This document shows positions 7,162 to 49,270 of a DNA stretch of 64,000 nt, in pieces (position 1 is the first letter of the stretch; each line of letters begins with the position of its first letter). A program made the translations under genes and the position numbers. Source of the DNA: Candidatus Paceibacter sp. (lineage in GTDB: Bacteria; Patescibacteriota; Patescibacteriia; Magasanikbacterales; UBA922); the NCBI GenBank assembly GCA_020725175.1, contig DYFM01000006.1:2190-66189 (forward strand). Direction: 5' to 3'. The notes below the pieces were generated by a model. The model was given only the letters and a program-made list of their open reading frames with translations, had not been told where the DNA came from and searched no databases.

Positions 7162-7163
7162 AT

Positions 7164-7559
7164 AGACAATTGAGAATAAGCCGAATTTTGTATCCCAAAA
7201 TAATTGGGAGGTAATCATTTCTCTTGCTCTACCATTACTGATAGAGTCATAAACGAGCCAACTTTCCATCCCGACAAGTCGGGACGCTGCTCTTTCTCCA
7301 GGTAGGGTTTACCATCCCGACTGAGTCGGGAAGCATTGTCGCCTTTTATCTAGAACAAAAGACATCAATGCACTTTTCACCTTTCTCCCGACAATGTCGG
7401 GATAGTATTGTCTCTGTGGCACTGTCCCGTTCTATACCTTACGGTATAGAAGGTGGGTGTTACCCACTACCCTTTTCCTCAGTGTTAAACACCAAGAGGA
7501 GTTCGGACTTTCCTCACCACCCCTCGAAAGAGGTGGAGCGATTACCATGTCAATTGTCT
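7164..7559 (-). ncRNA. rnpB: RNase P RNA (bacterial type), about 396 nt
   Basis: On the minus strand: GAGGAAAGUCCGAACUCC (CR-I) and AAUUCGGCUUAUUC (CR-V). The P4 strands AG(U)CCGAA / UUCGGCU pair with covariation relative to E. coli GG/CC. P1 is formed by AGACAAUUG (5') and CAAUUGUCU (3'); a P3 hairpin CCACCUCUUUCGAGGGGUGG is present. Confidence 0.75.
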
Positions 7560-7571
7560 TGTGCTCAGGAG

Positions 7572-7654
7572 AGGATTTGAACCTCCACAGGGCGAACCCC
7601 GCTACCACCTCAAGGTAGTGCGTCTACCATTCCGCCACCTGAGCATATAATCAC
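7572..7654 (-). tRNA. tRNA-Leu (anticodon GAG), long variable arm
   Basis: Cloverleaf: acceptor GCUCAGG/CCUGAGC, D-arm GCGGAAUGGUAGACGC, anticodon loop UUGAGGU, variable hairpin CGGGGUUCGCCCUG, T-loop UUCAAAU; CCA not encoded. Confidence 0.85.
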
Positions 7655-23722: not shown

Positions 23723-23829
23723 AGTACAAATACTATAGCGTAAAATGGGAGATAAATCAACCATAAAAAAGTGCTGTACAACACTTTTTATATTCAGAAA
23801 CACAGATAATCCCTCTCGATTCAATGAAT

Positions 23830-23985
23830 GTCCCCGCAGCACGTGTCCGCCTGGGGTGGAAGCTGACGGGGTATCGCTATAGGTAGTTTTTCCCGATCAA
23901 ATCGGGAGAGAATAAAACCCTCGTCCGCCTTGCTTTGCACGCCTTGCTTGTCCGCCTTGGGTGGGGGCTGTGGGCGGATTAAACA
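23830..23985. repeat. GC-rich dispersed repeat, copy B (full length)
   Basis: Aligns with copy A over about 150 nt; the internal hairpin is changed with compensation (CCCGATcaaATCGGG versus CCGTAGCaaGCTACGG); terminal GGCGGATTAAAC. Confidence 0.6.
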
Positions 23986-24027
23986 AACACTTACACGCAC
24001 AACCTCTTCTTTCTTCATTTGGTTATT

Positions 24028-45320: not shown

Positions 45321-46307
45321 TTAGACACCTTCTAAAAAAGATTGTAATTCAGGCGGGAGTTCACACGTATAACACACCCTCTCTCCCTCGTTCGTCACAA
45401 AACACAATCGCTCGGCATGTAAAAACAATCTTCCGAGAGCAGTATCCATTTTTCTATTTTGTTTTTTACCATAGTAGAGCATATCTCCCACCACCGGATG
45501 ATTGTACGCAAAAAAGTGCACCCGAATCTGATGCATACGTCCAGTATGAATGCGCACCTTGAGTAATGTGAGATGAGGAAATCGCTTCATGACATCATAT
45601 TCGGTCTTCGCATCTTTTCCGGGCTGCTCTTTAGCAACGTTTCGTACTTGCAGTGGATCAAGTTTTGGTCTCGCAACCATTTTTCCTTCTCTGCCCCGGT
45701 CGATAAGAAAGTCAATTACATCATGATCTTTTGGTACCGCACCGTGCACCAATACAAGATACTCCTTTTCCACCGAACGGTCTTTAAACTGTACCTTCAA
45801 ATGATTGAACATATTTTGTGTTCGAGCAATAACTAACAATCCAGATGCCTCTCGATCCAAGCGATGAACAATTCCCGGACGTTTTTGGTCTTCCCCCACC
45901 TTCTCTATTTCAGGATATCGCTCAACTACCCATGATGCCAATGTTATTAGTTCGTTGGCCTCGGTTTGGTGTACCAAAAGTCCGGCTGGCTTATACACCA
46001 CCAGATACTCTGGAGTTTCCGCGATACATCGTACTTTACTATATATATGTGTATCATTGTCTACTGACGATGTTTCTTCTACAACCTCTTCTGGTAAAAC
46101 CGCTTCACGAATTTCAACTACCGCCCCAGGTTTCAATTGATCCCCGGCTTTCTTTGACAGTTTTCCATTAACCCTAACCTGTCCTTCTTTTATCAGTTTT
46201 TGTGCTTGAGAACGAGTAATTGAGAGTTGTTCAGATAAAAAAAGATCGAGACGAATCACCTCTTTACTATCCATTGATTGATACAAAAATGTTTTAGGAA
46301 GTTTCAT
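45321..46307 (-). CDS. rluD: 23S rRNA pseudouridine synthase, RluA family (RluD-like, S4 N-terminal domain)
   Basis: S4 domain followed by the HRLDREASGLLV catalytic motif. Confidence 0.85.
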   Translation of the reverse strand: MKLPKTFLYQSMDSKEVIRLDLFLSEQLSITRSQAQKLIKEGQVRVNGKLSKKAGDQLKPGAVVEIREAVLPEEVVEETSSVDNDTHIYSKVRCIAETPEYLVVYKPAGLLVHQTEANELITLASWVVERYPEIEKVGEDQKRPGIVHRLDREASGLLVIARTQNMFNHLKVQFKDRSVEKEYLVLVHGAVPKDHDVIDFLIDRGREGKMVARPKLDPLQVRNVAKEQPGKDAKTEYDVMKRFPHLTLLKVRIHTGRMHQIRVHFFAYNHPVVGDMLYYGKKQNRKMDTALGRLFLHAERLCFVTNEGERVCYTCELPPELQSFLEGV

Positions 46308-46421
46308 ATTTGCTGAGTATACATGAATTTTTTCTTTCTGTCTAGATGAACAATCACTTTCTCTTATTGTTTCTATGACTTGATTTTTCTTTGCAACACT
46401 GCTATACTTTTTGTGTTTTAC

Positions 46422-46494
46422 GGGCCTGTAGCTCAGGGGTTAGAGCACAACGCTTATAACGTTGGGGTCGGTGGTTCAAAACCACCCAGGCCCA
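46422..46494 (+). tRNA. tRNA-Ile with anticodon UAU (Ile-type body, reads AUA)
   Basis: GGGCCUGUAGCUCAGG...GGUGGUUCAAAACCACCCAGGCCCA closely resembles the bacterial tRNA-Ile(GAU) body; anticodon loop CUUAUAA; extended -10 (TGCTATACT) upstream. Confidence 0.75.
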
Positions 46495-46497
46495 CAT

Positions 46498-46791
46498 ATG
46501 CATTATGTGTACTTTCTTTGGAGTGAAAAACTGCAAAAAATATACATCGGAGAAAGTGCGGATATTATCGCAAGATTACAGTATCATAATTCCGGCAGAC
46601 AAAGATTTACCTCACGCGGCATTCCTTGGAAACCAATTGCTTGTATACCATTTGCGAGTAGAGCAGAAGCACTAAAAGAAGAAAAACGTTTAAAAAAGTT
46701 ACGTAGTAGGCCGTATCTTAAACAATATCTCCTAACTCAGGGGAGAAAGTTTCCTTTCTCAGGGGTTAGTCCCGATCACATCGGGATATAA
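46498..46791 (+). CDS. Small stand-alone GIY-YIG nuclease-domain protein (about 97 aa), filling the gap between the tRNA-Ile and its duplicated 3' half
   Basis: GIY-YIG motifs YVYFLWS..KIYIGESADIIARLQYHNSG; the ORF starts 4 nt after the tRNA and its stop codon overlaps the start of the duplicated tRNA segment. Confidence 0.7.
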   Translation: MHYVYFLWSEKLQKIYIGESADIIARLQYHNSGRQRFTSRGIPWKPIACIPFASRAEALKEEKRLKKLRSRPYLKQYLLTQGRKFPFSGVSPDHIGI

Positions 46792-46828
46792 CGTTGGGGT
46801 CGGTGGTTCAAAACCACCCAGGCCCACA
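46787..46828 (+). repeat. 42-nt direct duplicate of the tRNA-Ile 3' half (TATAACGTTGGGGTCGGTGGTTCAAAACCACCCAGGCCCACA), followed by the presumed original tRNA terminator
   Basis: Exact 42/42 match to 46455-46496; followed by the hairpin AAATAGCCAAATTTGGCTATTTTTTG. Confidence 0.85.
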
Positions 46829-46853
46829 AAATAGCCAAATTTGGCTATTTTTT
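46828..46853 (+). terminator. Hairpin plus T-run terminator after the duplicated tRNA segment
   Basis: ATAGCCAAA/TTTGGCTAT stem followed by TTTTTT. Confidence 0.65.
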
Positions 46854-47020
46854 GTTTTAGAAATATTTGTTCTCTTTTGATAAACTATGTTTTGTAGACC
46901 AGATAATTAAAATAACCGAACGTTCAACACATACTACACCAGAAAATAACGTACAACAAAATACAATAATTGATTTCCCCACCCTTCTCTGTTATACTGA
47001 GTTACAACATATTTCTATCT

Positions 47021-47737
47021 ATGAAACAGCATATCTATCTCACCCTTATTTCTATCGCTTCAGAGCGAATGCAACGATCAAAAGACCCTATTCATGATCA
47101 TGCCCATGTATCAAGAGTAGTAAAATACACCCAAGATTTAGCAAAAAAACTTTCTGTATCAGAAACAAACCTCCACGCCCTTCTGATTGCCGCATGGTGG
47201 CACGATGTCAGCAGAACCCTCACGAAACAACCCTCCTTCATCTGGATGCCTCTCATTGATGATATTGTATCTTCTGTTATGCTCCTCTATACCATAGTGA
47301 GAAAAAAACTCTGGAGCAAAGATTCACTACTTGCAGCTCGGATTGTGTTTTGTAAAAGCACTGCGGCCGGTACTTTTTTACGAAAACTTTTACTCAATCC
47401 TTCGCAACAAATTCTGGTTGATATTCTCAAAGATGCTGATGCTCTTGATCTACTTCACACTGATCGGACGAAACATCTTCAAGAACTCGTCAACATCTCT
47501 CTTCTATATGCCTACGGATACAAATTGCAGGCCTGGTGGTTTTTCTCTTGCCAACAGATAAAATTCAAAACTGAAGCAGCTAAAGAACAATTTGTTACTC
47601 TTCTCAAAGAATTTCTCGCTTGGATATCGGAGGAAATGACTATCGCATGGCATAAACACACATTTGGAGAAGAGTGGGTATCAAACATGATGAATGATAT
47701 CAAACGACTCATTGCGCAATTTGAAGTGCAGCACTAG
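47021..47737 (+). CDS. HD-domain phosphohydrolase family protein
   Basis: HD motif (IHDHAHVSRV ... WWHDVSR); start set at MKQHIYL; about 238 aa. Confidence 0.6.
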   Translation: MKQHIYLTLISIASERMQRSKDPIHDHAHVSRVVKYTQDLAKKLSVSETNLHALLIAAWWHDVSRTLTKQPSFIWMPLIDDIVSSVMLLYTIVRKKLWSKDSLLAARIVFCKSTAAGTFLRKLLLNPSQQILVDILKDADALDLLHTDRTKHLQELVNISLLYAYGYKLQAWWFFSCQQIKFKTEAAKEQFVTLLKEFLAWISEEMTIAWHKHTFGEEWVSNMMNDIKRLIAQFEVQH

Positions 47738-48879: not shown

Positions 48880-49002
48880 ATGCCAGCAAAGAAACGTCCA
48901 GCAGCTAAGAAGGCTGCAAAGCGACCAGCTAAGAAAGCTGCAAAGAAGCCAGCTCGAAAAGCTGCAAAGCGACCAGCTAAGAAGGCTGCAAAGAAGAAAT
49001 AA
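48880..49002 (+). CDS. 40-aa lysine/alanine-rich basic protein (histone H1-like / AKKA-repeat)
   Basis: ORF MPAKKRPAAKKAAKRPAKKAAKKPARKAAKRPAKKAAKKK with a GAAGGA RBS 8 nt upstream and a perfect intrinsic terminator 10 nt downstream; absent from the ORF track because it is under 60 aa. Confidence 0.55.
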   Translation: MPAKKRPAAKKAAKRPAKKAAKKPARKAAKRPAKKAAKKK

Positions 49003-49052: not shown

Positions 49053-49270
49053 TTCTAATGTCTAATTCCTAAAGAAGTATACAGCGGATTCAAAATTTTA
49101 ATTAATGTCCCCGTAGCAAGCTCCGGGAAATAAAACCCTATGCACGCCTGGAGCTGTGGGCGGATTTACATTTTAGCTTTTCTTTAATGAGGTGGTAGGT
49201 GTAATGCAGACTTATTCTAGGTTTTACATTAGGCTTTGTATTAGAAATTAAACATTAGACATTAGAAATT
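49053..49270. mobile_element. TIR-bounded MITE-like element carrying a partial GC-rich repeat (copy D, 49108-49168)
   Basis: TIRs TTCTAATGTCTAATTCCTAA / TTAGAAATTAAACATTAGACATTAGAAATT resemble those at 44033-44190; the core CCCCGTAGCAAGCTCCGGG..CACGCCTGGAGCTGTGGGCGGATTTACA matches the 3' half of copy A. Confidence 0.45.

Follow-up and report, generated by a model that had tools for sequence, protein, structure and literature searches.

A 64,000-nucleotide stretch of the genome of a Candidatus Paceibacter sp. (Patescibacteriota, Magasanikbacterales; assembly GCA_020725175.1, contig DYFM01000006.1, positions 2,190 to 66,189), referred to here as the window, carries a short gene for a GIY-YIG nuclease that is inserted inside a tRNA-Ile(UAU) gene. 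Comparison with related sequences makes it probable, in our view, that this locus represents a selfish, tRNA-riding nuclease cassette and one member of a large family, in which a nuclease gene and a cognate palindrome of the TCCCG type together occupy the 3′ end of a tRNA gene. Searches of open-access full texts and preprints yielded no account of Slx1-like GIY-YIG cassettes linked to tRNAs.

The intact tRNA-Ile(UAU) gene lies on the plus strand at 46422-46494/5 (ARAGORN; Rfam, 70.2 bits), with the anticodon TAT and no encoded CCA according to both programs. Three nucleotides (nt) past its end, at 46498, an ATG opens a plus-strand open reading frame (ORF; 46498..46791) that encodes a nuclease of 97 amino acids (aa) of the Slx1/UPF0213 type (Pfam GIY-YIG, PF01541, E=2e-11). 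Its TAA stop codon, at 46789-46791, falls within the second copy of a direct repeat composed of tRNA nt 34-73 followed by CA. Copy 1 (46455..46496) and copy 2 (46787..46828), both on the plus strand, are identical at 42/42 positions and spaced by 332 nt, far beyond chance; the repeat extends from tRNA nt 34, the first base of the anticodon, to 2 nt downstream of the discriminator. Copy 2 is preceded by a perfect 7-bp palindrome, TCCCGATcacATCGGGA (46770..46786, plus strand), in place of tRNA nt 23-33, and this in turn by a 12-nt D-loop copy (tRNA nt 11-22; 46758..46769, plus strand, 100% identical to 46432-46443), the remnant of a pseudo-tRNA 5′ part. The downstream copy is a near-complete pseudo-tRNA, lacking the 5′ acceptor strand and broken by the hairpin. 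It occupies the position of the original tRNA 3′ end and adjoins a predicted intrinsic terminator (46828..46858, plus strand) with a 10-bp stem (46828-46851) and a T-run, which would end the tRNA-ORF transcript; no such stem and T-run follow copy 1. A preliminary description of the window had placed the intact tRNA, the 97-aa ORF, the stop codon inside the exact 42-nt repeat and the terminator after the second copy only just where we find them. It took the duplication for that of the tRNA 3′ half, which holds for the exact copy, but it overlooked the D-loop fragment and the palindrome that make the second copy longer.

Placed at tRNA nt 33/34, the insert comprises, in order, tRNA nt 34-76, the ORF, the D-loop scrap and the palindrome, 332 bp in total, of which the ORF takes up 294 nt. 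It consists of this one ORF amid genes for an RluD-like protein, guanylate kinase, L19, a DUF389 protein and a conserved protein without a Pfam match. No element-encoded tyrosine or serine recombinase was found in the insert or among the neighbours of the locus, nor in the loci of its relatives. The sole candidate promoter for the tRNA-ORF unit is a TTGATT-17 nt-TATACT site with a TG extension upstream of the tRNA (46380..46408, plus strand), with none between the tRNA 3′ end and the ATG, and a similar CTTGA...TATAAT box stands upstream of the tRNA in related loci. The tRNA itself is the apparent AUA decoder in these Patescibacteria, single-copy and at a conserved locus that, depending on the clade, is oriented one way or the other with respect to the genes around it.

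An intron in the tRNA anticodon loop (group I or other) with the ORF as cargo would agree with a distal copy that starts at the anticodon, the 5′ half and the distal 3′ half together making up a complete tRNA from which the mature molecule would be spliced. However, an uninterrupted tRNA is already encoded and the ORF fills the insert. A scan of 46000-47300 against Rfam (E<=10) returned tRNA only, with no ribozyme or other meaningful family in the insert, and in relatives (L001, L009 and L012; loci are given here by their L numbers) the distal copy is often degenerate and so not an exon. Such an intron is exceedingly improbable, as the preliminary description had already held for group I introns. 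A functional tRNA-like RNA downstream of the ORF was also considered and rejected: neither the 5′ acceptor strand nor nt 23-33 are present in the pseudo-copy, it folds into separate hairpins, and some relatives (L012) have it in degenerate form or not at all.

The closest homologues of the protein (54-69% identity) all come from Candidatus Magasanikbacteria (Patescibacteria), where they occupy the same syntenic place in the order L19, guanylate kinase, RluD-like, tRNA-Ile(UAU), ORF, a conserved protein of ~245 aa and DUF389. A metagenome scan with the tRNA sequence yielded 57 further loci and, after identical and cut-short loci were removed, 46 non-identical tRNA-Ile(UAU) loci, most of them syntenic, were used for counting states. 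The ORF is present in 15/46 (filled loci), while 20/46 are clean and empty, 10/46 hold tRNA pseudo-copies alone (scar-only loci) and 1/46 (L029) retains an ORF remnant of 16-23 codons fused before the RluD start. One locus, L014 (CAYSXR010000003.1), is titled 'uncultured Gammaproteobacteria bacterium' and has the gene order and proteins of Magasanikbacteria, probably a taxonomic mislabel of a metagenome-assembled genome. Loci L001-L073 come from samples of aquifers and groundwater.

Direct comparison of filled and empty alleles locates the insertion. The clean empty loci L037 and L059 have a tRNA sequence identical to that of filled L015 and L016; the RluD start codon lies 2 nt past the tRNA in the former pair and behind the distal pseudo-copy in the latter. 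Likewise, in the low-GC clade the neighbouring gene has a promoter, aaaaagtgNtataat, that directly adjoins the tRNA where the locus is empty and the distal pseudo-copy where it is filled. It follows from both comparisons that the original tRNA 3′ end is represented by the distal copy and that the insertion took place within the tRNA, in line with what had been proposed for the second copy from the window. In L033 the ORF is gone, and the spacer, half the hairpin and the distal 3′ end are retained; both L029 and L033 are deletion remnants. On trees built from the flanking proteins, the filled, scarred and empty loci are intermingled. At the tRNA-Ile locus the module is thus both old and widespread and not a one-off insertion, a point unknown to the author of the preliminary description. 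The 20 empty loci, a kind of evidence that the preliminary description had called for, and the remnants and tRNA-flanked relatives described below make its proposal of a minimal tRNA-targeting mobile element largely right.

The clearest trace of movement comes from the comparison of L001 with L012. Synonymous third positions are 0.93 identical (65/70) in the ORF, versus 0.67 in RluD, 0.63 in the 245-aa protein and 0.45 in DUF389 (Fisher p=8e-7). A sliding comparison delimits a tract of ~470 bp that is 90-98% identical, with coding flanks at 75-80% and intergenic edges at 35-45%; the tract spans an upstream pseudo-tRNA, the tRNA, the spacer and the ORF. Judged by these sites, the cassette is far younger than its flanks in this pair. 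In the clade of L001 and L012, the acceptor strand reads GGGCCAA both in the promoter-proximal pseudo-copy and in the functional tRNA of ORF-less L021. It reads GGGCTAG in the functional tRNA to which the ORF is linked, and the 3′ strand is changed to match. These sequences suggest that the ORF brought along a tRNA copy of its own, the resident one being left behind in broken form.

Relatives of the gene are found beside other tRNAs as well. All eight non-syntenic relatives inspected lie downstream of a same-strand tRNA (Asp, Pro-UGG, Pro-GGG, Phe or Ile), seven of them within ~55 nt and L080 at ~600 nt, behind an array of pseudo-copies. Behind the ORF, most have a further copy of their tRNA, interrupted by a palindrome of the TCCCG type. 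A search for GIY-YIG genes flanked by tRNA fragments, proposed in the preliminary description, thus finds them in several phyla and at several tRNAs. In the Ignavibacteriaceae (L074) the order is tRNA-Asp, ORF, GGAGGTCG with TCCCGAATaaaATTCGGGA and the last 17 nt of tRNA-Asp, and a terminator. L075 and L084, which include Verrucomicrobiota, have tRNA-Pro(UGG), the ORF and a pseudo-copy with TCCCGAC...GTCGGGA after the D-loop. In the Bacteroidota, L077 consists of tandem units of ORF and tRNA-Pro(GGG), the D-arm of the tRNA being replaced by TCCCGCCggtGGCGGGA. L066 and L079, from other Patescibacteria, have tRNA-Ile(UAU), an ORF abutting the tRNA and pseudo-copies in which CTCCGACttwaaGTCGGAG replaces the anticodon arm. 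L080 has tRNA-Asp and five pseudo-copies with TCTCGTCA...TGACGAGA. Finally, in [Flexibacter] sp. ATCC 35103 (L083), tRNA-Phe and its terminator precede the ORF, and a second tRNA 3′ part with a terminator follows it; TCCCGA palindromes are found in the T-loop and in the terminator loop. At 1800-1880 of the same locus, a duplicated tRNA-Phe terminator has its loop replaced by TCCCGAAGCTTCGGGA, which puts a palindrome inside the apical loop of a different hairpin.

In lineages of the Candidate Phyla Radiation (CPR), the ATG of the ORF adjoins the tRNA end with a gap of 1-4 nt and no promoter or Shine-Dalgarno sequence. The association is also visible in annotated proteins of the family: 18/53 N-terminal extensions hold translated tRNA motifs (AQLVEQ, GSSP/GSNP, GFES), compared with 2.6% of shuffles, and C-terminal tails ending in GRPD, GRPE or SPD, the palindrome read in frame, are enriched about four-fold. 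Gene callers extend ORFs of the family into the tRNA or hairpin, as in the window (46462-46791) and in P0122, P0126, P0195 and P0229; this systematic artefact points to an adjacent tRNA.

A second GIY-YIG subfamily (MYHVYVLKS...) was found downstream of tRNA-Leu(GAG) in a complete Magasanikbacteria genome, OZ246405.1 (L087, 3880-5060). Pseudo-tRNA-Leu copies lie on both sides, with a different palindrome, CCTGCCTGCCGGCAGGCAGG, which also occurs in pseudo-tRNA-Ile copies of L072 and L058. The locus further contains a lipoprotein-like ORF of 189 aa whose ATG abuts the end of tRNA-Leu(GAG). The separate palindrome of this second subfamily fits the idea that each nuclease clade is paired with one of its own; among the nuclease clades examined, which cover only ~8 lineages, palindrome types do differ.

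Such changes of partner bear on the possibility that the gene is a housekeeping one, a vertically inherited Slx1-like nuclease that repairs DNA or resolves structures such as R-loops and cruciforms and is co-transcribed with a highly expressed tRNA. The pseudo-tRNAs and hairpins would then be unrelated local duplications, and they do occur in ORF-less loci too, while absence of the ORF would mean gene loss. ORF identity broadly tracks that of the flanks, the syntenic locus is the same in all Magasanikbacteria examined, the catalytic residues are conserved under purifying selection (see below), and the 2006 survey of the GIY-YIG superfamily held prokaryotic Slx1-like proteins to be vertically inherited, the bacterial clade being regarded as repair proteins (Dunin-Horkawicz et al. 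2006, PMC1564403). However, ~60% of the syntenic relatives lack the gene, with clean empty sites nested among carriers, and L029 and L033 keep remnants of it. The L001/L012 cassette is much younger than its flanks, and across phyla the gene is found with different tRNA partners, together with a duplicated tRNA piece and a palindrome at the stop codon, which would not be expected of a fixed partnership. We therefore regard a housekeeping role as unlikely.

When all tRNA fragments were mapped to tRNA coordinates, the same breakpoint positions recurred. The commonest scar, a hairpin in place of nt 23-33 as in the window, is also seen in tRNA-Pro(UGG) of another phylum. Further recurrent scars have the hairpin in the T-loop after C56, replacing the T-arm, replacing the anticodon arm (nt 28-42), or in or beside the D-loop, and arrays of up to five pseudo-copies occur in L004, L070 and L080. 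A GC-rich perfect palindrome, in most cases of the TCCCG type, starts between -68 and +16 nt of the stop codon in 16/20 ORF-bearing loci. Of the loci at tRNA-Ile, 14/15 filled ones contain the TCCCGA palindrome, compared with 3/31 unfilled ones (Fisher p=4e-8).

TCCCGA is the only recurrent family of GC-rich palindromes in the window, with 5 copies in the 64 kb against 0.03 expected. Three TCCCGAC..GTCGGGA palindromes lie in peripheral stems of the RNase P RNA gene, at 7269-7284, 7315-7331 and 7386-7402; this gene (7162-7557, minus strand; Rfam, 162 bits) starts 5 nt after tRNA-Leu(GAG), within 7162-7644. A connection of these three with the cassette may be supposed from their likeness. RNase P RNA was not beside the DAGK-like gene in L086 and L087, the two relatives' loci checked. 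The fifth copy, TCCCGATcaaATCGGGA (23891..23907), is in the eno/gpmI intergenic region, and this hairpin had no credible Rfam match. It is contained in the first copy of a GC-rich dispersed repeat present in two intergenic regions of the window, 23815-23995 and 49100-49185, which share the motifs AATGTCCCCGYAGCA, AATAAAACCCT, GCACGCCT and GCTGTGGGCGGATT and have no Rfam match. Elsewhere, the TCCCGA palindrome forms the core of bidirectional terminators (AAAAACA-TCCCGACtagGTCGGGA-TGTTTTT) between convergent genes, in L022 (4060-4100) and L067 (2010-2045), the tRNA-Ile locus of L022 being free of a GIY-YIG gene. Though linked to the cassette, the palindrome thus also occurs outside it.

The protein belongs to the GIY-YIG superfamily by its Pfam score (PF01541, 44.5 bits against a cutoff of 22.6), and Y5, Y16, G18, R26, H30 and E62 are invariant among 19 homologues with identities down to 28%. 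Its conserved domain spans codons 1 to ~82, and codons 83-97 read into the pseudo-tRNA and hairpin. An AlphaFold (AF2) model has a mean confidence, or predicted local distance difference test (pLDDT), of 87, with values of 56-68 over the last ~15 codons versus >90 in the domain, and a beta-beta-alpha-beta-alpha-alpha topology. A profile of close homologues matched, in the PDB, the UPF0213 proteins BH0048 (1zg2, 6e-7) and EF2693 (1ywl, 2e-6) and SLX1 (8e-5). In a Foldseek search with the model, Slx1 nuclease domains ranked first (probability 1.0), UvrC and I-TevI reaching only E=0.2-0.4, and the NCBIfam model for group-I-intron GIY-YIG endonucleases, TIGR01453, gave 14.9 bits, below its cutoff of 56. 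Owing to the PDB profile matches, the Foldseek ranking and the low TIGR01453 score, we assign the protein to the Slx1/UPF0213 type, as a bare minimal catalytic domain that lacks a DNA-binding domain and is not a homing enzyme of the I-TevI or Seg type. The proteins of all relatives are equally short (85-100 aa). In close pairs of ORFs, amino-acid identity exceeds synonymous-site identity, a sign of purifying selection, and together with the invariant catalytic residues this indicates an enzyme that is kept by selection.

We know of no established function for the small standalone bacterial proteins of the Slx1/UPF0213 type, which form a very large family. A word-index profile search gave 112 relatives, and an exhaustive search 25,058 clusters at 50% identity, 5,929 of them at E<=1e-10. 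No viral relatives were found in a scan of IMG/VR, and the best match in PHROGs was at only 0.087. A GIY-like N-terminal match elsewhere in the window, at 49171-49209, was not significant (E=3.4).

By analogy, the closest described counterpart of the cassette is SegB, a GIY-YIG homing endonuclease encoded in the tRNA cluster of T-even phages. SegB recognises the conserved T-arm sequence of tRNA genes, moves by homing along with the tRNA genes beside it and brings about a segmental amplification that depends on recombination and includes truncated copies (PMC2330249; PMC13096335). The cassette resembles SegB and the Seg enzymes in having a nuclease gene among tRNA genes, in its presence/absence polymorphism, in a tRNA that travels with it, in tandem pseudo-copies and in T-loop breakpoints after C56. 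As in homing elements, a conserved locus is polymorphic, with 15 filled, 20 empty and 11 scarred cases, and flanking markers are co-converted, as seen in L001 versus L012. On the other hand, the Seg/I-TevI architecture of two domains, with a C-terminal DNA-binding domain and ~200-260 aa in total, contrasts with the 85-100 aa of all relatives. The cassette also differs in being chromosomal in bacteria, in lying inside a tRNA that it restores with its own 3′ part, and in having a palindrome as part of the unit.

One could instead imagine a domesticated SegB-like amplifier, whose breaks promote tandem amplification or turnover of tRNA genes, for instance to restore or raise the tRNA supply against tRNA-cleaving toxins or phage. 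SegB acts so in phage T6 (PMC13096335), and tandem arrays of tRNA copies adjoin the ORF in L004, L016/L070, L077 and L080. Nearly all of the extra copies are hairpin-inactivated or truncated, however, and add no tRNA supply; PADLOC returned motif-level matches only (partial GIY, PDC-S14), and no defence genes lie nearby. We consider this quite improbable. A defence system as such was rejected on the same PADLOC result, the partial GIY-motif matches being to PDC-S14 only.

Integrase islands that target tRNA genes are similar in another respect. There, too, tRNA 3′ repeats flank the insert, the promoter-proximal copy is rebuilt and the original 3′ end is displaced downstream. Unlike them, the cassette has no recombinase, measures ~330 bp, and shows repeat lengths and breakpoints that vary by lineage and fall at loop positions; its integration presumably proceeds by host homologous recombination. 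The att-like direct repeats of the tRNA 3′ part could in principle be the attL and attR of a classical island from which all but the GIY-YIG cargo was deleted. Yet at least 15 distinct loci of Magasanikbacteria, and loci of other phyla too, share this minimal ~330-bp arrangement, which has housekeeping genes as its immediate neighbours and is never accompanied by an integrase. Its junctions, at loop positions with a conserved palindrome, are unlike integrase core sites. The attL/attR likeness noted in the preliminary description is consequently structural only, and the decayed island that it offered as an alternative is contradicted by this recurrence and very improbable.

In sequence and fold the protein is closest to Slx1/UPF0213 (YhbQ/COG2827-like) and keeps the catalytic Tyr/Tyr/Arg/His/Glu set. 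Slx1 cuts branched and stem-loop DNA and works with Slx4 in genome maintenance; cutting of stem-loops would fit the cassette breakpoints at hairpin loops. The cassette differs from described Slx1/UPF0213 proteins in its linkage to tRNA, and no selfish lifestyle is described for these proteins in the open-access papers and preprints searched. For the palindrome, analogies exist in REP/RAYT (repetitive extragenic palindromes and their transposases), in GC-rich clusters of yeast mitochondria and in hairpin repeats of sponge mitochondria (PMC3733652, PMC4478555, PMC2800124). All share with the cassette a short GC-rich palindrome in several copies, in an AT-rich genome and near the gene of a candidate mobilising enzyme. 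Here, though, the enzyme is of the GIY-YIG type and not a HUH/Y1 transposase, which places the cassette outside REP/RAYT and makes the likeness a functional one only; moreover, its palindromes lie in the apical loops of existing stem-loops, at the D-, anticodon and T-loops of tRNAs, in a terminator loop and in RNase P helices, are not simply extragenic, and have a low copy number.

The following scheme would account for the locus as a selfish cassette. The tRNA 3′ part carried by the element (nt 34-73) would rebuild a working tRNA, the original 3′ part staying downstream as the pseudo-copy. Given the gap of 1-4 nt and the lack of a promoter or Shine-Dalgarno sequence of its own, the ORF would be read from the tRNA promoter; 3′ processing of the tRNA would free a near-leaderless mRNA, the 3′ end of which would be formed by the palindrome and terminator. 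We picture the GIY-YIG protein as the driver of mobility. Because it is an Slx1-like enzyme without a DNA-binding domain, recognition of structure is most plausible: the nuclease may cut stem-loops or cruciforms formed by its cognate palindrome or by the tRNA gene. Such structure-specific cutting would fit both the breakpoints at loop positions and the conservation of the palindrome across phyla. Host homologous recombination could then copy or integrate the cassette, the tRNA repeats serving as homology arms wherever the recipient genome has that tRNA. If a 332-bp circle recombined with the tRNA by one crossover inside the 42-nt homology, exactly the structure in the window would result; double-strand-break repair from a filled donor would lead to the same outcome, and the reverse crossover would yield a clean empty site. 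Repeated cutting and imprecise repair would leave arrays of hairpin-bearing pseudo-copies, with selection retaining one intact copy.

Several points weigh against this account. The case rests wholly on comparative sequence, from which we infer cleavage, its target and mobility. L001 and L012 are the one pair with a clear excess; other pairs of loci show little or no excess similarity in the ORF, and between major clades ORF identity tracks the flanks, so that much of the inheritance at the locus is therefore vertical. The clean empty sites could be repeat-mediated deletions and not never-invaded sites, for which reason gains and losses cannot be polarised, and the Fisher tests carry no correction for phylogeny. 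The hairpin may be an independent element, since TCCCGA is also found far from GIY-YIG genes, in RNase P RNA and in the terminators of a genome with an empty locus, and the model offers no mechanism that places the same palindrome at new sites. Finally, the enzyme has no DNA-binding domain and, if the tRNA gene were the recognition site, the adjacent intact tRNA would stay a target. The persistence of an intact tRNA in the filled allele means that the cleavage target is not simply the tRNA body. The tRNA might escape if the start of the ORF replaced a cleavage site just 3′ of it; alternatively, the enzyme may cut the palindrome of the element itself and not the target.

A wider reading, possible though doubtful, is that the nuclease and the TCCCG palindrome make up a new two-component mobile system with neither integrase nor transposase. 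In it, a structure-specific, Slx1-like nuclease would recognise its cognate palindrome and, aided by host recombination, would move a tRNA-armed cassette and also seed palindromes into apical loops. The loops so seeded would be the D-, anticodon- and T-loops of tRNAs, terminator loops and the peripheral helices of RNase P RNA.

Apart from the cassette, the window holds at 48880-49002 a 40-aa ORF with Lys/Ala/Pro-rich, histone-like repeats (MPAKKRPAAKKAAKRPAKK...), of which much longer versions stand at the equivalent place in L022 and L067.

The proposed design is free of a recombinase: the cassette sits in an essential single-copy tRNA gene and carries the part that it displaces as a portable homology arm. 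If a broad subset of the Slx1/UPF0213-type proteins are tRNA-riding cassettes, this would provide a biology for a large family that has had no established function, and would explain the ORFs that are annotated into tRNA genes. Should the two-component reading be true, a selfish function would follow for a large part of the UPF0213/YhbQ-like family, which comprises ~25,000 clusters at 50% identity. The proposal is experimentally tractable provided that the strain can be had, since a carrier, [Flexibacter] sp. ATCC 35103, bears a culture-collection number. The occurrence of the palindrome at the loops of tRNA copies, in terminators and in RNase P RNA hints at a source of variation in the structured RNA genes of streamlined genomes such as those of the CPR.

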